Shown: positions 32,796-46,780 of the stretch, piece after piece
Numbering within the stretch: the first letter of the stretch is position 1
Layout: each line of letters begins with the position of its first letter
IMG/VR virus record: IMGVR_UViG_3300037449_000119
Location: 282-64,281 of that record
Reading direction: 5' to 3' (one strand)
From: a virus
Taxonomy: Duplodnaviria; Caudoviricetes
Length of the DNA: 64,000 bases
Position numbers and translations under genes: made by a program
Notes under the pieces: generated by a model
The model's database searches: none
Told to the model about the DNA's origin: nothing
The model's input: the letters and a program-made list of their open reading frames with translations, nothing else

Positions 32796-33362
32796 GTGCA
32801 AGCGAAGAAGAAAAAACCCGTGTCTAAGCAGGCTGCGCTAAAATCCGCGCTGGTTGCGAAGAGCGAAGCCAAAGGGCATACCGCGGTGAAGCCCCCACCC
32901 CCGAAGAAGAACAACGGCAATACATCGAAGCGCGGAGTTGTCGGCGAGGGGCATCCGTTTGTCAAAGTCGATGTGGACCAGCTCGCGCTCCTGGTGAAGA
33001 TCGGCTGCACCATGGACGAGATCGCCGAAGTTCTCAAGGTTGCCAAGGACACCATCGAGCGGAATTATATGCCTGTGGTCGTAGCCGCACGCAAAGAGCG
33101 CAACGTCGCCATTCGCCGCAAGCAATATCAGCTTGCAATGGACGGCGACCGTACCATGTTGGTGTGGCTTGGCAAGCAGTGGCTCGGGCAGACCGATCAA
33201 CTTCAACTGGGCAACAACCCTGACAATCCTCTAACGCCAGGGGGTTCGGTGCCAGTCATTGAGATTATCTTCGTCGAGTCCGATGGCGATGGGCACCCGA
33301 AAACCATAGAAGGCATTGTTGAACCAAAGAAGCTGACGGGTGGTAGCAATGCTTCAAAGTGA
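32796..33362 (+). CDS. terS: terminase small subunit (HTH type)
   Basis: GCTMDEIAEVLKV...IRRKQYQLAMDGDRTMLVWLGKQWLGQ; directly upstream of terL; start uncertain. Confidence 0.75.
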   Translation: MQAKKKKPVSKQAALKSALVAKSEAKGHTAVKPPPPKKNNGNTSKRGVVGEGHPFVKVDVDQLALLVKIGCTMDEIAEVLKVAKDTIERNYMPVVVAARKERNVAIRRKQYQLAMDGDRTMLVWLGKQWLGQTDQLQLGNNPDNPLTPGGSVPVIEIIFVESDGDGHPKTIEGIVEPKKLTGGSNASK

Positions 33363-34662
33363 ACAAGCAGTGCGCGATGAACAGCGGTTTCAAGAGCAGC
33401 GCGAAGTTGTCGGCAACCCTCGCGCCTACTTCCCAGCAAAGTTCAAAGCGTTGTTCCAGCCTGCACGCTACAAATCCATGCACGGCGGTCGTGGTTCAGG
33501 AAAGTCGTGGGCGGCTGCGCGCGCACTGGTTTTGCTCATGGGGAAGAAGCCATTGCGCGTGCTCTGCGCCCGTGAGTTGCAGAACTCCATTGCGGAATCA
33601 GTGCATCGGCTGATAAGCGACCAGATATTCGACCTGGGCCTGCTCGGCAAATTCATCATTACAGAGAAGTCCATCCGCTGTATCAACGGAGGAGAGTTCA
33701 TCTTCGCCGGCATTCGCTCCAATCCAATGAAGATCAAGTCCATGGAAGGTCTTGACGTGTGTTGGGTTGAGGAGGCATCGGTCATCTCGGAGCGAAGCTG
33801 GGAGTTGCTCACCCCCACCATCCGCAACGGCAAGGTTTACACGGGACGCGACGGTGTGCGGGAGCCGGAGATCTGGCTGACGTGGAATCCTGACCAGATG
33901 GACGACCCTACCTACGTTCGTTTTGCCAAGAACTTGCCACCAGGCTGCGTTGACATTGTTGTCAACTGGACAGACAATCCATTCTTTCCAAACGTACTCC
34001 GCCGTGAGAAGGATTACGACTACAGCCGCGACCCTGACCTGGCAGCTCACGTGTGGGGCGGCGAGTGCCGCGTCAACAGCGAGGCACAGATTTTCAAAGG
34101 CCGCTACATTGTCGATTTGTTTGCACCACCAGATGATGCCCGCTGGTATCACGGCATGGACTTCGGGTTTGCCAACGACCCATTCGCGCTCACCAAGATG
34201 TACATTACCGGCGACGAACCCACGCTTCAAGAGTTGTGGGTTTACGACGAGCGCAGCGGCGTAGGCATTGAACTAGATGATTTGCCCACACACGTTCGCT
34301 CTATGCCCACGGCTCTGAAGTGGCCGTGCAAAGGCGACAACTCTCGGCCGGAAACGATCAGCTACCTGAAGCGCGTGGTGCCAATGAATCTCGTCGCCGC
34401 TGAGAAGTGGGGCGGTTCAGTCGAGGATGGCATCACGCACATGAAGGGCTTTCGTAAGATTCACGTGCATTCAGTGAACTGCCCACGCGGTCAAAAGGAG
34501 TTCCGTCTTTACCACTACAAGGTGGACCCGAAGACAGAAGAGGTTCTGCCGATCATCGTCGATGCCTGGAACCACACCATTGACGCCGACCGCTACGGCC
34601 TGGATGGCCTCATTCATCGTCGCGGCGCCGACAAGGTTTGGTCGCGGTTTGCAGGGCACTGA
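33340..34662 (+). CDS. terL: terminase large subunit (PBSX-type)
   Basis: HGGRGSGKS, CAREL, CWVEEA, TWNP, GMDFGFANDP, NHTIDADRY. Confidence 0.95.
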   Translation: MVAMLQSEQAVRDEQRFQEQREVVGNPRAYFPAKFKALFQPARYKSMHGGRGSGKSWAAARALVLLMGKKPLRVLCARELQNSIAESVHRLISDQIFDLGLLGKFIITEKSIRCINGGEFIFAGIRSNPMKIKSMEGLDVCWVEEASVISERSWELLTPTIRNGKVYTGRDGVREPEIWLTWNPDQMDDPTYVRFAKNLPPGCVDIVVNWTDNPFFPNVLRREKDYDYSRDPDLAAHVWGGECRVNSEAQIFKGRYIVDLFAPPDDARWYHGMDFGFANDPFALTKMYITGDEPTLQELWVYDERSGVGIELDDLPTHVRSMPTALKWPCKGDNSRPETISYLKRVVPMNLVAAEKWGGSVEDGITHMKGFRKIHVHSVNCPRGQKEFRLYHYKVDPKTEEVLPIIVDAWNHTIDADRYGLDGLIHRRGADKVWSRFAGH

Positions 34663-34718
34663 GCGATAATCGCTTGTATTTGGGTTGGGCTAGGGTATAC
34701 TGATTTCGAGGTTTGGGC

Positions 34719-36668
34719 ATGACCGATAAGCTCAGCATCAAATCCTTGGTGCGCGACACCAAACGCGAAGAAGCGCAATCCCGCAAGGCAATCACCAAGG
34801 ACTCCTTCCAAAATTTCAGCGCCAAGCTGGGCATCGGCACCGACAATCTCTCCTCAACATCTACCTACGGCTTCAACCCCATCACCCGAATACGCATCAT
34901 GCTGGAGTGGATTCACCGCGGCTCCTGGCTAGGTGGCGTTGCGGTGGACGCTGTGGCCGATGACATGACCCGCGCCGGTGTGAAGATTGAAAGCGAACTA
35001 GAGCCAGACCAGGTTGAGCGCATCGAAGAGGTCGCCACAGAGCTTCACGTATGGGACGAGATCAGGGACAACATCGCATGGAGCCGCCTGTACGGCGGCT
35101 CTATTTGCGTCTTCCTCATCGAAGGGCAGAAGATGTCCACGCCACTGCGCGTCGAGACCGTGGGCAAGGGGCAGTTCAAGGGGTTGGTCACGCTTGACCG
35201 CTGGATGGTGGAACCCTCGCTGGGCGACCTGGTGACAGATTACGGCCCTAACCTGGGCAAGCCAAAATTCTACACCGTCAACGCCAACTCCCCCGCGCTC
35301 ATCGGCGAGAAGATTCACTACTCTCGCGTGATTCGCATGGAGGGTGTGCGCCTGCCCTTCCAGCAGCGGATGACGGAAAACCTGTGGAGCATCTCGATCT
35401 ACGAACGCATATACGACCGTATGGTGGCCTACGACTCAACCACCACGGGCATGGCGCAGTCAGTCTACAAGTCGTACCTGCGCACCGTGCGCATGAAGGA
35501 CTTGCGCGAGAACATCGCTGCCGGGGGCAACCAGATGGATGGCGTTGTCCAGTATATGCAGATGATGGCCCGCTTCCAGTCTATCGAAGGCATTACCCTG
35601 CTCGACATCGAAGATGAGTTCCAAGAGGGCGGCGCGCAGAACTTCGCCGGCCTGCGCGAAGTTCTCATGTCCGTGGGCGAGCAGATCGGCGGCGGCATGG
35701 ACCCCGCCATGCCGCTGGTTCGCCTCTTCGGTATGAGTCCAGCAGGGTTCTCCAGCGGCGACGCTGATCTTCGGATGTGGTACGACTCTGTGAACAAAAT
35801 GCAGAAGACCAGGCTCCAGGTGCCGGTCACTGCCATCTATCGCTGCATCGCGCAGAGCGAAGGCTACGAAGTGCCCGAGGGTTTCGCAATCGAGTTCGTT
35901 CCGTTGTGGCAGCTCACCGATGTAGAGAAGTCGCAGATCGCCAACACCGTCACAACATTCGTTTCACAAGCGCGAGAGCAGGGTGTAGTGAAGCCAGATC
36001 TTGCGCTCCAGGAGTTGAAGCAGAGTTCCAAGACCACGGGTTACTGGTCCAACATCACCACCGACGATATAAAGGAAGCGGAGGAACAAGGCCCTCCGCA
36101 GCCTGCCAACGTCGAGACTGCTGAGGCTGGTCAAGGTGTTGCACCAGGGGAGAAAGCTCAACCGGGCAAGGCTGCGCCGCAAAAAGCGAAAGCTCCCGGC
36201 GCGTCAAAGGACTCTGCTTCAACAGTTGCCGAGCTGCACCGCTTGTACGGGTTGCAGGTGGTCATCGAGAATATGGCCGGCACTATCCGCCGCGGCGTCG
36301 GGTGGGAGTCGCTCATGCCCGACGACTACGGATACATTCGTCGTCACGAGGGCGCTGATGGAGATGCTGTCGATTGCTTCGTGGGCAAAGACGCACGTGC
36401 TCTCAATGCCTACGTCATCGACCAGAGAGATTTACGAACGGGTCTATTTGACGAGCACAAGGCCATGCTTGGATTCAAGACAGCCGGTGATGCCGTTGAA
36501 ACCTACCTGCTCGCCTATGACAGTGGAGACGGCGACCCCCAGCGCATCATGGCCTGCACTTCGATGACGGTGCCGGAGTTCCGGTTATGGCTGGAGTCGA
36601 GTGACAAGACTGTTCCCTGCATCGAGGGCGTGCGCGATGTTCCTGGCGTTGAGGCCATTGACCTGTGA
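34719..36668 (+). CDS. portal protein (DUF1073 type) fused to a C-terminal inorganic-pyrophosphatase-like (InPase) domain
   Basis: Position after terL; VDAVADDMTRAG, SRLYGG, HYSRVIR, PLVRLFGMSPAGFS; C-terminal DYGYI...GADGDAVDCF...DQ...FDEHKAMLGF. Confidence 0.85.
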   Translation: MTDKLSIKSLVRDTKREEAQSRKAITKDSFQNFSAKLGIGTDNLSSTSTYGFNPITRIRIMLEWIHRGSWLGGVAVDAVADDMTRAGVKIESELEPDQVERIEEVATELHVWDEIRDNIAWSRLYGGSICVFLIEGQKMSTPLRVETVGKGQFKGLVTLDRWMVEPSLGDLVTDYGPNLGKPKFYTVNANSPALIGEKIHYSRVIRMEGVRLPFQQRMTENLWSISIYERIYDRMVAYDSTTTGMAQSVYKSYLRTVRMKDLRENIAAGGNQMDGVVQYMQMMARFQSIEGITLLDIEDEFQEGGAQNFAGLREVLMSVGEQIGGGMDPAMPLVRLFGMSPAGFSSGDADLRMWYDSVNKMQKTRLQVPVTAIYRCIAQSEGYEVPEGFAIEFVPLWQLTDVEKSQIANTVTTFVSQAREQGVVKPDLALQELKQSSKTTGYWSNITTDDIKEAEEQGPPQPANVETAEAGQGVAPGEKAQPGKAAPQKAKAPGASKDSASTVAELHRLYGLQVVIENMAGTIRRGVGWESLMPDDYGYIRRHEGADGDAVDCFVGKDARALNAYVIDQRDLRTGLFDEHKAMLGFKTAGDAVETYLLAYDSGDGDPQRIMACTSMTVPEFRLWLESSDKTVPCIEGVRDVPGVEAIDL

Positions 36669-38356
36669 CCGACTACCCGCCAACTCGGTTCTGCTCCACC
36701 CGCGCTGCGCTTGCCAATGGGGTGACGCGGGACGCGCGTTTTGTGGAGCAGGAGCTGCCCCGCGTGCGCAAGAGCCTGCACGATAGGATGTTGGAGGCCA
36801 GAGACGAAGTAGGCATGGCCGAAGATTCTTTGTTTGACACACACGACAAGAAAGACGCCGAGGGCCGTGAGCACGTTCCCGCAGGCAGCAGTAAGGGTGG
36901 GCAGTTCGGCAAGGGTGCAGGCAGTTCGTTTTCTAAAGCGCCGATGGAAGCACGGAAGAAGGCTGTGCTGAATCAGATTGAAAGCAAAGGGTTCTCGGAG
37001 ATTTCCGGCAACGCGGGAAAAGAACTGATCGCCGCAATGCGCGAAGATGGCTACAAAGTGGAGAGCGCGGGAAATGGTGTTGTTCGCGTGACCGCCAAAA
37101 AAGCAACCCCAGCCCCTCCATCGCAGCGCGCGGCTAAAGTCACCATGACCCCTGCGCAGAGCAAGAATAACATCGCGCAGCTTGAGAAGTTGTCGGGTGT
37201 TGTCGCTAAGAAAATGTCAGCCATCTACGAGCGAATGGAGGCGGCAAAGCCTAACAGCGCCGAGTACAAACAAGCAGTGCGTGAGTATGAGGCAGCAGGG
37301 CAAGAGCCAGGCGCTGAAGTAGGGTACGGGAACCCTGGTGCAAGCGAGGAGTCGCAGAAAAAAGCAATGGCGCGCGTTGCCGCGAAGGACAAAGAGCGCG
37401 GTTTTGATTGGGATAAGGACTGCCAGCGGTTTAACGTAATCGCTCCCGAAGACCGCAGTACGTGGCCCGCGCACTGCCTTCGCATCCCAGCCAAAGCGAA
37501 AGGCCCAATCTATTTGGGAATCTATCCTGAGAGCGCTTTTTGGGGCTCGTACATGCCGTATAACGGCGGCCCACGAAAACCGCTCTATAATCCAGCCTAC
37601 AGAATAGAAGGTAACTCAGGTAAGTTGGCCCGTGGAAGAAGTCTGCGCAAAGATGAGAAGGCGATTGACGCTGCGCTTGAAAAGGCGAACGCTGATCCGA
37701 GCAGCATAGCGTTCATGTATGCTTCGGCAATGTGGGCTTTGGCTATTCGCAGCGGCGCAAAAGAAGGCAAGTCTGCGAATAAAGTTGACTACGAAACCGG
37801 CGAAGTAGAAGAGACGAACGAGCTGACCTTCGGTACGCTCACCATGCGCGGAAAACACATTCGTGTGCGACAGGGCGGGGTGTACATCGCCATGCCGGGC
37901 AAGAAGGGCTCTGTCATTGATCTGCGTGTGCCTGACAAATTCGCAAAGGGATACTCAAACAGTGATCCAAAACACCCCGGGCTTAAAGAGAAGGCCGGCT
38001 CTAATGGCAAGGTGTTCGGCGATCACATTTCATACAGCGCACTGCGCAAGTGGATGGACTCTGTGAAACTTGGCGAGGGTCGCGCCCTGGGAGACTACAT
38101 TCCGCACGACGTGCGTATGCTGCGCGCAACGAACGAGGCCAAGCGCGTGATTGCGGGGATGAAGCCGCCTGAAGGCTATGTGCAGTGGAAGATGCACTTC
38201 AAGGCAGTGAAGGCCGCGGTTGGCAAGGTGCTAACCGATACACCAGGCGCTTTTATGTCGTACATCGACCCTGGTGTATGGAAGCCTTGGGCGAAATGGC
38301 AGGACAAAAAGACAATGGAAAAGATTGCGAAGTTTTGGGGTGGAGACGATGAGTAG
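36665..38356 (+). CDS. type IB DNA topoisomerase with N-terminal head-protein-like extension
   Basis: IRSG (R362), FGTLTMRGKHI, PGKKG (K413), PHDVR (R484), LTDTP, SYIDP (Y533) are collinear with vaccinia/bacterial TopIB motifs. Confidence 0.8.
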   Translation: MTDYPPTRFCSTRAALANGVTRDARFVEQELPRVRKSLHDRMLEARDEVGMAEDSLFDTHDKKDAEGREHVPAGSSKGGQFGKGAGSSFSKAPMEARKKAVLNQIESKGFSEISGNAGKELIAAMREDGYKVESAGNGVVRVTAKKATPAPPSQRAAKVTMTPAQSKNNIAQLEKLSGVVAKKMSAIYERMEAAKPNSAEYKQAVREYEAAGQEPGAEVGYGNPGASEESQKKAMARVAAKDKERGFDWDKDCQRFNVIAPEDRSTWPAHCLRIPAKAKGPIYLGIYPESAFWGSYMPYNGGPRKPLYNPAYRIEGNSGKLARGRSLRKDEKAIDAALEKANADPSSIAFMYASAMWALAIRSGAKEGKSANKVDYETGEVEETNELTFGTLTMRGKHIRVRQGGVYIAMPGKKGSVIDLRVPDKFAKGYSNSDPKHPGLKEKAGSNGKVFGDHISYSALRKWMDSVKLGEGRALGDYIPHDVRMLRATNEAKRVIAGMKPPEGYVQWKMHFKAVKAAVGKVLTDTPGAFMSYIDPGVWKPWAKWQDKKTMEKIAKFWGGDDE

Positions 38357-38492
38357 TCCAACAATGAAAGAAGCTGCCGAGTACGGGCGTACGCACGCCT
38401 TCGACCCTGATTTCGCGGAGCAACTGGAAGAAGACTGCGACAATGGCGGTCTTGATTTTGAAGACGACGACGAAGAGACAGACGAGGACTGA
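38349..38492 (+). CDS. small highly acidic protein (47 aa)
   Basis: GGAG SD; ...LEEDCDNGGLDFEDDDEETDED. Confidence 0.6.
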   Translation: MSSPTMKEAAEYGRTHAFDPDFAEQLEEDCDNGGLDFEDDDEETDED

Positions 38493-38494
38493 CC

Positions 38495-38761
38495 TTGGCA
38501 AAGCGCGGCGTGAAGAGCTACGAGGAGAGCACCACAGCCAAAGTGGTTCCATTCCGCGTCATCGCTGCTCAGCTTCACACGTCGCCGCGCGTGGTGGAGC
38601 GTGAGTTCCACTCAGGCGTGAACAAACTGAAGGCCGTGCCAGGCGCGTTTGATGCCATGCTCACCCTGCTCCGCATCAAATCTGTTGAGCGGCGAATGGG
38701 CACACGATGCGGCTCGGTGGAGTGCAACCAGGATTTTATCAGGGAGAACGGAGGTCGCTGA
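38495..38761 (+). CDS. sigma70 region-4-like HTH protein
   Basis: FRVIAAQLHTSPRVVEREFHSGVNKL. Confidence 0.55.
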   Translation: MAKRGVKSYEESTTAKVVPFRVIAAQLHTSPRVVEREFHSGVNKLKAVPGAFDAMLTLLRIKSVERRMGTRCGSVECNQDFIRENGGR

Positions 38762-39201
38762 CGCTCTACACAGACGAAGCAGGACTTGATTTTATCGCAG
38801 CCAATGAAGGGCTGGTGCTAACCATTAGCAACGACAACGGACACCCTGTCATCGGCCACGGCCACGACCTCACTCATCAAGAGATTGCCGGCGGTATATA
38901 CGCCAACGGAATCACCACACTCCAAGCACAACTGATTCTTGAGCGTGACTGTCGCGAGTGGGATGCTGCGATCAACGCTCTCAACTGGCCCTTGAACCAG
39001 AATCAACATAACGCCCTCTGCGACTTTACACACAACCTGGGAGTGGGCAAGTTGCAACGGCTCGCGGCGCATGGACAAGAGCAGGTGTGTGTTCAGCTGC
39101 CGCGCTGGGTGTATGAGAAGCAGAACGGTGTTGAGGTGGTGAGCAAGGGGCTCGTCGCGCGACGCGCAAAGGATGTAACGCTGTATCAGACTCCATGCTG
39201 A
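38758..39201 (+). CDS. GH24 phage lysozyme (muramidase), apparent CTG start
   Basis: FIAANEG...D...IGHGH, LNQNQHNAL..F.HNLG, WVY, GLVARR; GGAGG SD precedes a CTGA overlap. Confidence 0.75.
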   Translation: MTLYTDEAGLDFIAANEGLVLTISNDNGHPVIGHGHDLTHQEIAGGIYANGITTLQAQLILERDCREWDAAINALNWPLNQNQHNALCDFTHNLGVGKLQRLAAHGQEQVCVQLPRWVYEKQNGVEVVSKGLVARRAKDVTLYQTPC

Positions 39202-40985
39202 AAACCGAAGACGCCAAGCCGGTGAAGCCCACGCCACAGCAACTACGCAAGCTGGGGCGTGAACGGTTTATCCGCGCACGCCGCGCCGGCTCCGCCTTTC
39301 AGCGTCAGCTCTCCAAGCTGGGCAACCACATCGGCGCGCTTGTAAAGAAGCACGCTCCTGGTGGCGTGGTTTCTGACTGGCGCGCTTTGCGCAAGGCGCT
39401 CAACGATTACGCCGCGCAAATTCGCCCCTGGGCAGAGTCCATCACAGAAAGCCTGCACACCGAAGTCGCGCAACGCGATGCACAGGCGTGGTTCCAGGCT
39501 GGCCGCGAGATAGGGCAACACCTACGCGAAGAGATTGCCTCCGCGCCCACAGGCAAGATGATGAAGTCGCTGCTCGCGGAGCAGGTAGACCTAATCACAT
39601 CGCTGCCCACTGAGGCGGCAGAGCGTGTGCACAAGCTCACTCTGCAGCGCATCGCCCAGGGGCGCAGGCCGGAGTCCTTGGCTCAGGAGATTCTGAAGAC
39701 CGGCGAAGTGACCGTCGCGCGCGCCCGTATGATCGCGCGCACCGAGACTGCACGCACAGCAGCGGCGCTCACTGAGGTTCGCGCAAAGCACATCGGCAGT
39801 GAAGGATACCTGTGGCGCACTGCAAATGACAGCGACGTTCGTCCCGCAATCGGCACACCAGGATTTTCGCAGCTCAACACCCTTGCGATGGGAAGCCATC
39901 GAAAACTTGAAGGTACTTTTCACCGTTGGGACGAGCCGCCTATCGCAGCGCCCACTGGCGAGCACGCACACCCAGGAAGCATATGGAACTGCCGCTGTTT
40001 TTCGTCTGATACGCTTGTGACTAAAGTCACAGGAATTGAAAAGTTATATCGGTCGTACTACCGAGGTGATCTTTGCCGCGTTACAATTGGAGACGCCGAG
40101 TTTACAGCGACACCGAATCACCCGATGCTCACGCAACGTGGTTGGGTGCATGTATGCGAACTCCAAGACAGCGATTACCTCGTTCAGGTGCTCCGTGATC
40201 CACACATCTTCGTCGAAGCCAACGTAGATAGTTTTCACGCCACATTTGGCGAGTTGTTTGGATCGTTGCCTGGACGCGTGGATGTGGCACCGGGAATTTT
40301 GTTTGATCTCTATGGCCGTGTTCCCGATGGCGATGTCCACACAAAGATCATCAATCAACTTCTGACGTGTGACAACGTAGCCAAGAGTCTCAAGCGCAGT
40401 GGCAATTTCACACTCGCCAAACCCAACAGCGGGGTTGAAGGTGCCATTTGTGGCGGCGGTGCGCATGTTGCTGAAACGTCGAGAGCGTGCAGCAGCGACG
40501 CGCTTCTTTCGCCGTTCCAAAGTCATTCTCCCCATGCTGATTTCGTTGGCACTGCTGACGCCTCTTCGAGTGATGCCGGCCTCATTGAGTCGCTGAGTGA
40601 TGGTCCAACGATTGACGTGGTAGAGCGCAGCGAGTTCGAGTTCGCTAATTCCAGAAAGGTACTTGGCGACGATCTTTTCAGCGGGGAGGTTTTTGCGCCC
40701 GTTGCCATGACCGACCGCAGGCGCCCAATGTTTGACGACGCCACCAGCAGCACGAATCGCTTTGCTGAGATTGTCCGGGCTAACTTTGAGCAAGGCCGCA
40801 ACGTCTTTAAGACGGGTGCCGGCATCTATGCGCTGCTTCCCTTCAGAAACGACTTCATTCGTAAGTTTCCGTTTTCGGGCCATGTTTACACGCTCCAAAC
40901 TGACGTTGGTTGGTATGGGGTATCAGCTATGTCTATTATAGCACAAAACTGTTGGGCAGAGCCAGTTTTACCGGATCGTATTTGA
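39195..40985 (+). CDS. MuF/SPP1 gp7-like head morphogenesis protein containing an intein
   Basis: RARMIARTET, YLWRTANDSDVR, H..LEG.F.RWDEPP, HPG..WNCR|C.AEPV. Confidence 0.88.
   Translation: MLKTEDAKPVKPTPQQLRKLGRERFIRARRAGSAFQRQLSKLGNHIGALVKKHAPGGVVSDWRALRKALNDYAAQIRPWAESITESLHTEVAQRDAQAWFQAGREIGQHLREEIASAPTGKMMKSLLAEQVDLITSLPTEAAERVHKLTLQRIAQGRRPESLAQEILKTGEVTVARARMIARTETARTAAALTEVRAKHIGSEGYLWRTANDSDVRPAIGTPGFSQLNTLAMGSHRKLEGTFHRWDEPPIAAPTGEHAHPGSIWNCRCFSSDTLVTKVTGIEKLYRSYYRGDLCRVTIGDAEFTATPNHPMLTQRGWVHVCELQDSDYLVQVLRDPHIFVEANVDSFHATFGELFGSLPGRVDVAPGILFDLYGRVPDGDVHTKIINQLLTCDNVAKSLKRSGNFTLAKPNSGVEGAICGGGAHVAETSRACSSDALLSPFQSHSPHADFVGTADASSSDAGLIESLSDGPTIDVVERSEFEFANSRKVLGDDLFSGEVFAPVAMTDRRRPMFDDATSSTNRFAEIVRANFEQGRNVFKTGAGIYALLPFRNDFIRKFPFSGHVYTLQTDVGWYGVSAMSIIAQNCWAEPVLPDRI
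40044..40883 (-). CDS. HTH-HTH + Vsr/DUF559-like PD-(D/E)XK endonuclease encoded antisense inside the intein
   Basis: GTRLKDVAALLKVSPDNL; YLSGISELELAALYHVNRWTI..RL...G; GECEIATALETLGYVVTRQ...CVDIAIGNTAIEIK...LAKCGVKTIYV; GGAG SD at 40893-40896. Confidence 0.75.
   Translation of the reverse strand: MARKRKLTNEVVSEGKQRIDAGTRLKDVAALLKVSPDNLSKAIRAAGGVVKHWAPAVGHGNGRKNLPAEKIVAKYLSGISELELAALYHVNRWTITQRLNEAGITRRGVSSANEISMGRMTLERRKKRVAAARSRRFSNMRTAATNGTFNPAVGFGECEIATALETLGYVVTRQKLIDDLCVDIAIGNTAIEIKQNSRCHIHASRQRSKQLAKCGVKTIYVGFDEDVWITEHLNEVIAVLEFAYMHPTTLREHRVIRCRCKLGVSNCNAAKITSVVRPI
40935..40945 (-). promoter_or_regulatory. extended -10 promoter for the antisense nuclease
   Basis: TGTGCTATAAT on the - strand, within the block G codons (ATT ATA GCA CA). 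Confidence 0.65.
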
Positions 40986-41896: not shown

Positions 41897-43294
41897 GTGG
41901 AAGCCACAGCATTTCGTGTAAGCGAGAAGATCGGGCCAAACATGGCGTGGACAGATGAGCGGTTTCTCGTCTGCTACGGCGTGCCGATTGCTCGCACCGG
42001 AGTGCTGATCTACGGAGCCGGCGAACGCCCCGAGGTGCAGCCTGGGCCTGACGGCCTCATTCGCATCGAGCGACTGGACGAGGATGTGTTTGCAGAGGAG
42101 AGTCTCAAGAGCCTGCAAATCAAGCCGCTGCTCAACGAGCATCCCGCGTTCGACGTGAACCCTGAGAACTATCAAGAGCTAACAGTGGGGTCCGTTGTCA
42201 ACCCTCGTCGCGGAGAGGGCATCTTCGATGATTGCATCATTGCCGATGTAGTGGTAATGGATCGGCAGGCTATTGAGGATGTGCTCAGTGATAAGCGTGA
42301 GGTAAGTTGTGGGTACGACTGCAAGTATTTTGACCTGGGCGAAGGCCGAGGGCGGCAGACCAACATCATTTACAACCACGTGGCGCTGGTAGAAAGTGGT
42401 CGCTGTGGCCCACGTTGCAGCATCAAGGACCACGCCATGCGAAAGGAAACAACGATGAAGACGAACAGAGTGCGTCCGTGGTTGGACAAGCTGCGCTCGC
42501 TGGGCAGCGCCATTACACAGGACAAGAAGGCCACCTTTGACGAGGCTGTCGAGGAGGCGGAGCGCGAAGCCAAAACCAAGGATGCCGAGGAAGAGGCCGA
42601 AGAGCGCGAGAAGAACAAAACCAAGGACGACGACCTGTCGAAGCGCATGGAGGAGCTGGAGGCCAAGCACGAGGAGCATGGCAAGCAGCTCGAAACCCAC
42701 GACGCCAAGCTGAAGACCCACGACTCTGACATCGCCGAGCTGAAGGACAAGATCGGTGAAGGCGACAAAACAGCCGACGCCGAAGAGGACAAGGAGATCG
42801 AGGGTGAGCTGAAAGAAGAAGCTCCTCCGGGCAGTGGCGACAGCGCCATGAAAGCCAAGGACTCGGCGTACCTCGCTCCGACCTGGCAGAGCACCAAAGC
42901 TCTGGCCGAGATCCTCGTTCCCGGCATTCACATGCCCACCTTCGACAGCAAGGGTGACCCGAAGATCACATACAAGGGCATCTGCGACTTCCGGCGCCGG
43001 GCGTTGAGCATGGGTCTGCTGACCGCGGACACCAACCAGGTCATCGCCGAAGTTCGCGGTGGCCGCACCTTGGACTCCAAGGACATCGCAGCCATGAAGT
43101 GCGGCGAAGTTCGTCAACTGTTCTACGCGGCCGGCGCGGCCAAGAAAGCAGCCAACACCAGCGACGCGCACTCCGCAGGGCACTTCACCAATCTCGAAGG
43201 TTCAGGCGGCGGAGTTGGCGTTACCAGCAAGCTGAAGACGCCCGCCGACATCAACGAGGAAAACCGCAGGCGGTACGCCGCTGGCGACAAGTAG
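41897..43294 (+). CDS. DUF2213 prohead protease/scaffold protein
   Basis: VPIARTG, LLNEHP, REVSCGYDC, YNHVALVESGRCGPRCSI; acidic coiled-coil C-terminal half. Confidence 0.88.
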   Translation: MEATAFRVSEKIGPNMAWTDERFLVCYGVPIARTGVLIYGAGERPEVQPGPDGLIRIERLDEDVFAEESLKSLQIKPLLNEHPAFDVNPENYQELTVGSVVNPRRGEGIFDDCIIADVVVMDRQAIEDVLSDKREVSCGYDCKYFDLGEGRGRQTNIIYNHVALVESGRCGPRCSIKDHAMRKETTMKTNRVRPWLDKLRSLGSAITQDKKATFDEAVEEAEREAKTKDAEEEAEEREKNKTKDDDLSKRMEELEAKHEEHGKQLETHDAKLKTHDSDIAELKDKIGEGDKTADAEEDKEIEGELKEEAPPGSGDSAMKAKDSAYLAPTWQSTKALAEILVPGIHMPTFDSKGDPKITYKGICDFRRRALSMGLLTADTNQVIAEVRGGRTLDSKDIAAMKCGEVRQLFYAAGAAKKAANTSDAHSAGHFTNLEGSGGGVGVTSKLKTPADINEENRRRYAAGDK

Positions 43295-43935: not shown

Positions 43936-45003
43936 ATGTTGACATTCGATAACAGCCACCAGACGCAGGATTCGCAAGGCAACCAGCTCGGCGTGAGGCT
44001 TCCGCACGCTTGCACAACCCATGACGGGCGCACCGTGGACTCCACGGGCGCTTTCATGGTTGGTGAGTTGGAGCGTTTGGATCAGAAACTCCACGAACCG
44101 TTGGTATCGGTTACGTGGGGTCGTGACATCGACTTGCGCGAGGATGTAACCATCGCGGACGAGGTGTCGTCATTCACCATCAGCACCTATGGCTCAGCCG
44201 GCTCGCTCGGCGCTGGAAACAGCATCGGCAACGGCAAGGCGTGGGTAGGCAAGACCACCAACCAGATCGGTGGCGTCGATCTGGACATCGCCAAGACCAC
44301 GCATCCGCTGCTCCCCTGGGCGCTCGAACTCAAGTACACCATCATGGAGCTTGAGTCGGCGGCCAAGATGGGCCGCCCCATCGACCAGCAGAAATTCCAG
44401 GCGCTCCAACAGAAACATCAGATGGACATTGACGAGCAGGTGTACATCGGTGACACGTCGATCAACGCTACGGGACTAATCAACAGCACTGCGGTTACGC
44501 CGCAGAACGTGGTGAAGAGTCCGGTGTCAGGTTCGACTTTGTGGGCGCAGAAGTCTCCAGACGAAATTCTGCTTGACTTCAACACCGCGCTTACTACCGT
44601 GTGGGCGGCTTCGGCCTGGGCTGTGCTGCCCAGCCGGGCGCTGATTCCTCCGGCGCAGTTCGGTCTGCTCTCGACGCAGAAGGTGTCTCAGGCTGGCAAC
44701 ATATCGACGCTGAAGTACATTCAGGAGAACAACGTCCTGACAGCATCGGGGCAGGGCAAGCTGGACATCTTCCCGTTGAAGTGGTGCATCGGCGCCGGCC
44801 AGGGTGGCACGCTCGGAACCATTGGCGTTGACCGTATGGTGGTCTACACCAAGGACCAGGAGCGAGTTCGCTTCCCCATGACCATGTTGCAACGCACCCC
44901 GGTGCAGTACGACGGGCTTTACCACAAGACGACTTACTTCTGCCGCTTGGGGCAGGTGGAGGTTGTCTACGGGGTTACATTGGGGTATTTTGACCAGATC
45001 TAA
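43936..45003 (+). CDS. major capsid protein (DUF2184 family)
   Basis: GAFMVGELERLD..LHEPL..VTW.RDI, ELESAAKMGRPID, YIGD; 355 aa. Confidence 0.9.
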   Translation: MLTFDNSHQTQDSQGNQLGVRLPHACTTHDGRTVDSTGAFMVGELERLDQKLHEPLVSVTWGRDIDLREDVTIADEVSSFTISTYGSAGSLGAGNSIGNGKAWVGKTTNQIGGVDLDIAKTTHPLLPWALELKYTIMELESAAKMGRPIDQQKFQALQQKHQMDIDEQVYIGDTSINATGLINSTAVTPQNVVKSPVSGSTLWAQKSPDEILLDFNTALTTVWAASAWAVLPSRALIPPAQFGLLSTQKVSQAGNISTLKYIQENNVLTASGQGKLDIFPLKWCIGAGQGGTLGTIGVDRMVVYTKDQERVRFPMTMLQRTPVQYDGLYHKTTYFCRLGQVEVVYGVTLGYFDQI

Positions 45004-45962: not shown

Positions 45963-46478
45963 ATGTCATCACCTACGTGGCCGCCGACTCCCGCTCCGCT
46001 CGCCGCCGTTACCTACGCATCGTTCATTGTTGACTATCCAGAGTTCTCCAACGCCGCCACCTACCCGGAGGCGGCGTTCACCTTGTTCGCCAACGAAGCG
46101 GCAACCATGATGAACGTCGGTCGTTGGGGCGCCATGTACAACGACGGCTACGAGTTGTTCGTCGCCCACAAGCTCATGCTCTACAAGCGCCGGCAGGATA
46201 CCGCCGCGCTCAACGCTTACCCCGGGCTGGGAAAGGGCGTGCTGAACAGTGAGTCTCCGGGGCAGGTCTCTCTCAGCTATGACACCACTGCCAGCACAGA
46301 AGAGCGTGGCGGCATGTACAACGAGACCGAGTACGGACGCGAGTTCTTGCGCAAGGCGCGGCTGGTGGGCATGGGCGCTGTACAGGTCAACCACGGCAAC
46401 CCTGCTGGAGCAGTGGGCCAGGTGCAGAGCTTCATGGCATGGCCAGGACCGCCGACCGGAAACGGATATTCATTTTGA
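45963..46478 (+). CDS. head-tail adaptor (DUF4054 family)
   Basis: F..DYPEFSN, L.VAH.L, GQVSLSYD, YN.T.YG.EF. Confidence 0.8.
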   Translation: MSSPTWPPTPAPLAAVTYASFIVDYPEFSNAATYPEAAFTLFANEAATMMNVGRWGAMYNDGYELFVAHKLMLYKRRQDTAALNAYPGLGKGVLNSESPGQVSLSYDTTASTEERGGMYNETEYGREFLRKARLVGMGAVQVNHGNPAGAVGQVQSFMAWPGPPTGNGYSF

Positions 46479-46780
46479 TGAAGACACTCGCTGAGATCAA
46501 TGAAGCAAATCGCGCTCGTTGGGGGCAGACCAGTGATGCGTTCAAGGAGAGCGAGCACCCGCGCAAGGGAAACGGAGAGTTCGGCAGGAGTTCTGAAGGG
46601 GGGTACTCGACCAAGTTCTTATCGGAAAAAGCGAAAGTCGAGGGCCGTATAACAAACTTAAAAGCTAGGGCAGAAAAGTTGAGGGGGAAAGCTGGTTACG
46701 CTGATGCAGTACACGCGTGGATTTCTGCTATAAAAGCAGGCGAGAACCAGGGGTATTTTTTTGAGCGGAGCAGCAAATGA
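46478..46780 (+). CDS. small putative capsid-internal protein
   Basis: TGATG overlap; TSDAFKESEHPRKGNGEFG. Confidence 0.65.
   Translation: MKTLAEINEANRARWGQTSDAFKESEHPRKGNGEFGRSSEGGYSTKFLSEKAKVEGRITNLKARAEKLRGKAGYADAVHAWISAIKAGENQGYFFERSSK

Follow-up and report, generated by a model that had tools for sequence, protein, structure and literature searches.

A divergent type IB topoisomerase with a variant active site in the head-gene module of an uncultured phage: a candidate capsid cargo protein

An open reading frame (ORF) at positions 36665-38356 on the plus strand was analysed in the genome of an uncultured phage of the Caudoviricetes. The window, by which we mean the whole stretch of DNA analysed, covers 64,000 nucleotides and represents nearly the whole of a 64,281-bp IMG/VR record (IMGVR_UViG_3300037449_000119), which is rated as 100% complete and carries terminal repeats. 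The frame is open across 563 codons, and its product, consisting of a leader region, linker helices and the enzyme itself, is a divergent type IB topoisomerase (TopIB), an assignment that we regard as settled. The protein retains the Arg, Lys, Arg and Tyr residues of the TopIB active site, and its gene lies in the head module, coupled to the portal gene and followed by a conserved gene for a small acidic protein. We propose that a catalytically competent TopIB is packaged via its N-terminal leader, ejected together with the DNA and restrained by the acidic protein. For this reading as a whole we estimate a probability of roughly 0.55.

Direct searches of Pfam, PHROGs, NCBIfam and the PDB sequences with the protein gave no match, and a word-index search returned three relatives only, P0002 (79-80% identity), P0003 (54%) and P0004 (36-38%). 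The query clade is a rare long branch, for which about 15 billion proteins yielded just three further members. When 1.84 billion representatives were searched exhaustively with phmmer, 177 proteins were detected at E <=0.001; the matches cover residues about 260-543 of the query and in most cases lie at the C terminus of the matched protein, which has between 160 and 2,513 residues. This search joins the query to carriers of PF01028 at 1.8e-12, and the remote relatives bear both the TopIB catalytic core, PF01028, and the N-terminal domain of bacterial TopIBs, PF21338. A profile of the 75-member family matched the TopIB of Deinococcus radiodurans at 1.9e-48; the profile made from the four sequences of the query clade alone reached variola TopIB only at E 0.02. 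In a profile-profile comparison with hhalign, the query clade was aligned with ten canonical phage TopIBs at a probability of 99.9% (E 8e-36, 266 columns).

The AlphaFold model, with a mean predicted local distance difference test score (pLDDT) of 78.9, is confident from residue 160 on and has the TopIB fold. All of the 20 best Foldseek matches to this model were TopIBs. VIA-align gave Z scores of 15-18 over 260-283 aligned residues for the human, variola and Deinococcus TopIBs, model residues 255-549 being equivalent to variola TopIB 1-291 and the N-terminal beta domain to variola 1-80. On the catalytic domain, the D. radiodurans enzyme was superposed with a root-mean-square deviation of 2.3 A over 186 residues (Z 16.4). 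The N-terminal beta-sheet domain occupies residues about 250-310 (37412..37594, plus strand; strands at 257-308), where PF21338 is found in relatives, and the catalytic domain follows at residues about 311-545 (37595..38299, plus strand). Because the transitive sequence links, the profile-profile comparison and the fold agree, the product was assigned as TopIB, in agreement with the original prediction, which had been made from the order of active-site motifs and had named Foldseek as a check.

The same prediction had left room for a tyrosine-recombinase-like enzyme. Tyrosine recombinases gave Z 9-11, against 15-18 for TopIBs, with alignment of the catalytic domain only, and protelomerases gave Z 6-7. 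From these fold scores and the TopIB-type N-terminal domain, both were ruled out as the primary identity of the protein, and a plain recombinase is unsupported; an H-x-x-R element in the active site is nevertheless recombinase-like.

The active-site residues proposed earlier were all found in the catalytic domain on the plus strand: R362 (37748-37750), K413 (37901-37903), H481 (38105-38107), R484 (38114-38116), D525 (38237-38239) and Y533 (38261-38263), with D482 in addition. The spacing from Asp525 to Tyr533 is 8, one short of the usual 9 as had been noted, and the same spacing of 8 is present in P0002 and P0003; the loop of P0004 is longer. R362, K413, R484 and Y533 are invariant both in an alignment of 75 sequences (the query and 74 relatives) and in one of 149 domains, and the query clade retains these four, as well as H481 and D482, in all members down to 38% identity. 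The variation concerns two other positions. Position 481 in the 75-sequence alignment is Lys in 63, His in 10 and Arg in two, and position 525 is Asn in 67, Asp in six and His in two. The fifth active-site residue is His in TopIBs of eukaryotes and poxviruses or Asn in those of bacteria, and the query has Asp525 in its place.

The combinations of residues at 481 and 525 among the 149 domains were K+N in 129, H+D in 10, H+N in four, K+D in one and others in five. Asp was present at 525 in 11 of the 149 relatives, 10 of which also have His at 481. Judging from these counts, the His-for-Lys and Asp-for-Asn replacements are not noise, but co-occur and mark a subclade. In a phylogeny built with FastTree, the query clade forms a long branch (support 0.997) nested in an 11-member clade in which all members have His; the support of the latter is modest (0.77). 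As its basal members are of the H+N type, the change from Lys to His seemingly came first and that from Asn to Asp second. H+D was found at two further places on the tree, and the combination may therefore have arisen about three times, a count to be taken with caution given the support of 0.77. Members of this H/D clade outside the query clade still pass the Pfam TopIB threshold.

TopIBs are described as being without an equivalent of Cre His289, a residue called unique to recombinases; in viral TopIB, Lys220 faces away from the active site toward the +1 phosphate, and water occupies the place of His289 (Gibb et al., PMC2943603). The query segment H481-D-V-R484 fits the tyrosine-recombinase box II pattern H-x-x-R, and since TopIBs are without the His289 equivalent, it recreates recombinase box II on a TopIB fold. 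His481 and Asp525 might then be hydrogen-bonded to each other close to the scissile phosphate.

The second line of evidence is the position of the gene. The head genes are arranged in the order of large terminase (TerL), portal-InPase, TopIB, lysozyme, MuF, protease/scaffold and major capsid protein. The portal gene, which carries a C-terminal InPase domain, is located at 34713-36668 on the plus strand (PF06381 4e-88; PF18823 9e-31; phrog_146), and is translationally coupled to the TopIB gene: the TGA stop codon of the portal gene overlaps the GTG start codon as GTGA, an arrangement that had been recognized from the outset. A frameshift fusion of portal and TopIB was considered and rejected, since a TGA codon lies two codons before the GTG in the TopIB frame and a slippery heptamer is absent. 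No plus-strand terminator was found between portal and MuF by a consensus scan, and the scan for promoters and terminators gave nothing above chance. The G+C content of the TopIB gene (55.9%) is close to that of the window (57.0%), so that the gene is unlike a recent import. The InPase domain occupies residues 510-627 of the portal protein, and the order InPase-leader-TopIB across the GTGA junction is the same as within a single-chain relative (P0006).

In the N-terminal part of the protein, residues 1-115 are mostly disordered, with pLDDT below 50 at residues 1-31 and 52-93, and are followed by a weakly predicted small alpha/beta unit at residues 116-145. A clade-conserved helical region at residues 161-245 (37145..37399, plus strand, AlphaFold) includes helices 163-193, 199-211 and 228-244, all with pLDDT >90; it gave only coiled-coil-like fold matches, and in P0002-P0004 it is likewise conserved and preceded by a 'KATPAPP' linker. 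An Atlas search with residues 90-250 yielded no usable match. In P0003 a GNAT acetyltransferase replaces the small N-terminal unit, and hence the N-terminal module is swappable before a fixed KATPAPP linker and TopIB.

The original prediction had drawn attention to a head-protein-like N-terminal motif, HVPAGSSKGGQF. Such a motif does recur in relatives, roughly as D-A-x-F-x-E-x-[ED]-H-P-R-x(2-7)-G-x-F-x-x-G-x-G, with [FW] at the first F position; it gave 43 hits in 151 relatives and none in shuffled sequences, and is placed either ahead of the TopIB domain or, in long proteins, between one domain and the next. The copy in the query is degenerate, two half copies being found in the disordered leader at residues 23-33 and 69-86 (36731..36922, plus strand, by a regular expression). 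From its location, the motif can be read as a signal for loading or processing of head cargo; a literature search for it found no paper. A perfect copy, FKESEHPRKGNGEFG, of the form F-x-E-S-E-H-P-R-x-G-x-G-E-F-G, was detected by the same expression at residues 35-55 of a small head-module ORF of 113 aa (46439-46780, plus strand). This ORF is set among head-completion genes, between DUF4054/phrog_302 and phrog_939 head genes, and has no match in Pfam or PHROGs. It may encode a second capsid cargo protein.

The third line of evidence is the acidic partner. The ATG of a 47-codon ORF at 38349-38492 on the plus strand overlaps the stop codon of the TopIB gene, with GGAG located 4 nt upstream. Its product contains 19 Asp/Glu residues and has an isoelectric point of about 4.05, compared with 9.5 for the enzyme. 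P0153 (60 residues) is 71% identical to this product, with conservation of the non-acidic core (HAFDPDFAEQLEEDC, NG, LDF) and of the MxSPT start, and the P0153-type peptide is called on several contigs. With such a relative and a conserved core, the 47-aa ORF is a real gene. A longer call, P0154, starts with SIGVQT, and the 3' end of the TopIB gene of the window reads SFGVET when translated out of frame; the likeness hints that the source of P0154 has the same overlap with a TopIB gene.

For canonical phage TopIBs, a short frame with [LMI]GF[DN]P and an acidic run was found just downstream in 70 of 80 viral contigs. At two loci, L007 and L011, the frame of the GFDP acidic segment stays open into a long protein in which the F-x-E-S-E-H-P-R motif recurs, which indicates that the GFDP partner can head a further polyvalent protein. 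Homology between the 47-aa product and the GFDP partner is not claimed here.

The relatives suggest a role for these proteins in the capsid. TopIB is fused to InPase in P0006, to MuF in P0011, to ADP-ribosyltransferase (ART) plus MuF in P0012, to ART-PolyVal plus GNAT in P0042 and to NUDIX in P0049. Because of these fusions, we infer that TopIB is capsid cargo. The region as a whole reads like a polyvalent protein that may have been split into coupled genes for InPase, leader-TopIB, lysozyme and MuF. Of the original prediction, the assignment to TopIB and the unusual active site are supported, and a plain recombinase is not; its description of the enzyme as packaged and injected corresponds to what gene position and the MuF-, InPase- and ART-fused relatives suggest. 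The nearest reachable TopIB of the H/D type was found at L093:4097-7613, where the MuF gene (ending HPNCRC) overlaps the start of the TopIB gene; the next gene there encodes 305 aa with a strongly acidic beginning and is followed by a capsid-like gene.

Motif scans revealed phage TopIB in more than 150 uncultured viral contigs, as compared with one among 50,697 cultured phage records. By tblastn of these cultured records, the query gave no match and the canonical relative P0005 gave one, the gene top1E of Bacteroides phage BS162P1. That gene is annotated as DNA topoisomerase 1B and is set among hypothetical genes, outside a recognizable head module. Full-text literature searches for phage TopIB returned only papers on telomere resolvases and giant viruses, and no paper on a virion-carried phage TopIB was found.

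Based on these observations, the following sequence of events can be proposed. The divergent TopIB would be made alongside the head proteins and enter the procapsid by way of the disordered N-terminal leader that bears the motif. Until loading, the acidic 47-aa protein would most likely bind the basic enzyme as a DNA-mimicking inhibitor or a chaperone. After release into the host together with the DNA, Tyr533 would cut one strand with formation of a 3'-phosphotyrosyl link, the duplex would swivel and the strand would be resealed. The reaction would need neither ATP nor Mg, so that the enzyme could start immediately, whether on the incoming genome or on the nucleoid of the host. Supercoils would thereby be relaxed in the incoming genome, the host chromosome or both, in analogy to the poxvirus virion topoisomerase that supports early transcription.

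Several points weigh against this proposal. The phage is uncultured, and no contig with a close relative was found in the viral, metagenome and genome contig collections scanned. TopIB is encoded by a separate ORF, fused neither to portal nor to MuF. The motif copy in its leader is not only degenerate but split, FVEQELPR occupying residues 26-33 and EHVPAGSSKGGQFGKGAG residues 69-86. Asp525 places a negative charge at the site whose His or Asn in TopIBs makes a hydrogen bond to the scissile phosphate, which could lower the activity. With a hidden Markov model (HMM) built from canonical GFDP partners, the 47-aa ORF obtained a score of -4.5, below shuffled controls.

Of the other explanations, the one that best survives, though we consider it unlikely, is an ordinary intracellular late enzyme, which would ease torsion in late replication, in the processing of concatemers or while terminase drives packaging, and would merely share the head operon. 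The separate, unfused gene is in agreement with such a role, the phage's own family A DNA polymerase (PolA), helicase and primase make a replication-linked swivel plausible, and BS162P1, the one cultured phage with TopIB, has its gene outside a recognizable head module. An unpackaged enzyme leaves unexplained why relatives are repeatedly fused to the MuF, InPase, ART and NUDIX cargo domains; a long disordered leader with a polyvalent-type motif would be useless to a soluble enzyme, and a dedicated acidic partner suggests a need to restrain the free enzyme.

The acidic neighbour also allows a second explanation, one we hold to be quite improbable, in which TopIB and the acidic peptide represent a toxin-immunity pair of the MuF type. 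TopIB would be delivered as a DNA-damaging or nucleoid-relaxing toxin and the peptide would serve as the immunity protein. A small ORF is located directly downstream of TopIB, an arrangement reported at 89% of the genes for MuF toxins (PMC5576092), and relatives share polypeptides with ART toxin domains. On the other hand, TopIB reseals DNA and is not toxic in itself, topoisomerase is absent from the toxin list of Jamet et al. (PMC5576092), and MuF toxins are described in temperate phages, whereas this genome has its own replication genes and looks lytic (no integrase search was made).

The unusual active site invites two bolder proposals. The His481/Asp525 pair could define a new catalytic subclass between TopIB and the recombinases, in which case the virion-borne enzyme might become covalently attached to the ends of the ejected genome or join them, and the acidic peptide might silence it in the producer cell; we regard this as a long shot. 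If true, it would represent a natural topoisomerase-mediated step of end protection or circularization. Poxvirus TopIB is able to transfer strands onto foreign 5'-OH ends. A site-specific strand transferase, which would cleave near the genome ends through the H-x-x-R plus Asp site and protect an end covalently or circularize the genome, is favoured by the co-variation of His and Asp and by His481, which restores a recombinase box II pattern absent in TopIBs (PMC2943603). We consider it very improbable, for the fold and the N-terminal domain are those of TopIB and not of a recombinase, and no candidate target site was identified; CCCTT, the cleavage pentamer of the poxvirus and Deinococcus enzymes, shows no bias (98 occurrences where 99 are expected, rank 238 among 512). 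Least probable of all is a catalytically weakened DNA clamp, that is, a structural or DNA-pilot head protein that has lost topoisomerase chemistry, to which the replacement of the phosphate-contacting His/Asn by Asp525, the loop to Tyr533 short by one residue and the long branch of the clade would point, since retention of the four essential residues plus H481 and D482 down to 38% identity is unexpected after catalytic loss.

The remaining genes of the module, all on the plus strand, are as follows. The TerL gene is located at 33340-34662, upstream of portal. Downstream from the acidic partner gene, an 88-aa ORF (38495-38761) lies between it and the lysozyme gene and overlaps the lysozyme ORF. 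It has no match in Pfam and PHROGs; by eye, its middle segment, IAAQLHTSPRVVEREFHSGVNKLKA, resembles sigma-70 region 4 or a helix-turn-helix. The phage lysozyme gene (38707-39201; PF00959 7e-19; phrog_7) is of the T4 type and is located within the head module, in the interval from TopIB to MuF. It is followed by the gene for the MuF-like minor head protein (39195-40985; PF04233 1.5e-12; phrog_324 3e-50), a gene for a 267-aa protein with no assigned function, the DUF2213 protease/scaffold gene (41897-43294) and the major capsid protein gene (43936-45003). Farther along the window are genes for a tail sheath and a tape measure, and the opposite strand encodes PolA, helicase, primase and a DNA methyltransferase. 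The presence of sheath, tape measure, polymerase, helicase and primase indicates a phage of the myovirus type that carries replication genes of its own.

A virion-carried TopIB is a textbook feature of poxviruses, and it is to this enzyme that we liken the phage protein, which would likewise travel in the particle. The TopIBs of bacteria and poxviruses (D. radiodurans 2f4q/3m4a; variola/vaccinia 3igc/2h7f/1a41) share with it the two-domain fold, a similar size of about 315 residues and the same order of motifs, IR-x-G, G-K-x-G, x-D-x-R and S-Y-I-x-P. The query differs from them in its low identity (about 15-22%) and lack of a direct Pfam match, in the 245-residue N-terminal extension with the leader motif, in the location of its gene in a head operon and in the acidic partner gene. 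As compared with vaccinia TopIB, it has His for Lys220 and Asp for His265/Asn280, and its Asp-Tyr loop is shorter by one residue. Tyrosine recombinases such as Cre, lambda Int and XerH have a related catalytic fold (Z 9-11) and the same chemistry, and their H-x-x-R is matched by His481...Arg484. In contrast, the N-terminal domain of the query is of the TopIB type, and an equivalent of Cre Glu176 is absent. The coupled changes from Lys to His and from Asn to Asp offer a natural test of how the active sites of TopIBs and recombinases relate, and TopIB may have a natural protein inhibitor in its small acidic partner.

Polyvalent phage proteins (Iyer et al. 2017, PMC5512222) and effectors linked to MuF (Jamet et al. 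2017, PMC5576092), for which cargo delivery is predicted, likewise bring InPase, lysozyme, MuF and an enzyme side by side in the portal-terminase module. In the relatives these domains are joined in one polypeptide, whereas in this phage they are encoded by separate, coupled genes. A topoisomerase domain is mentioned in neither PMC5512222 nor PMC5576092. An origin of bacterial TopIB from an extinct or undiscovered group of viral TopIBs has been proposed (Forterre and Gadelle 2009, PMC2647321), and the head-module phage TopIBs are candidates for this group.

The closest comparison is with the canonical phage TopIBs of head modules (P0005-P0016; L002-L081), which belong to the same family and share the head setting, the leader/linker motif and a small acidic ORF downstream. 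The canonical proteins keep K-D-F-R-T and L-G-N-T-P and pass the Pfam thresholds, unlike the query. They are often fused to MuF, portal or effector domains, whereas the query stands alone, and their partner carries the GFDP motif, whose HMM does not match the partner of the query. The locus adds a TopIB subfamily that is invisible to standard annotation. What is specific to 36665-38356 is the combination of a Pfam-invisible long-branch clade, a coupled His/Asp site, a stand-alone gene with a leader and a different acidic partner.

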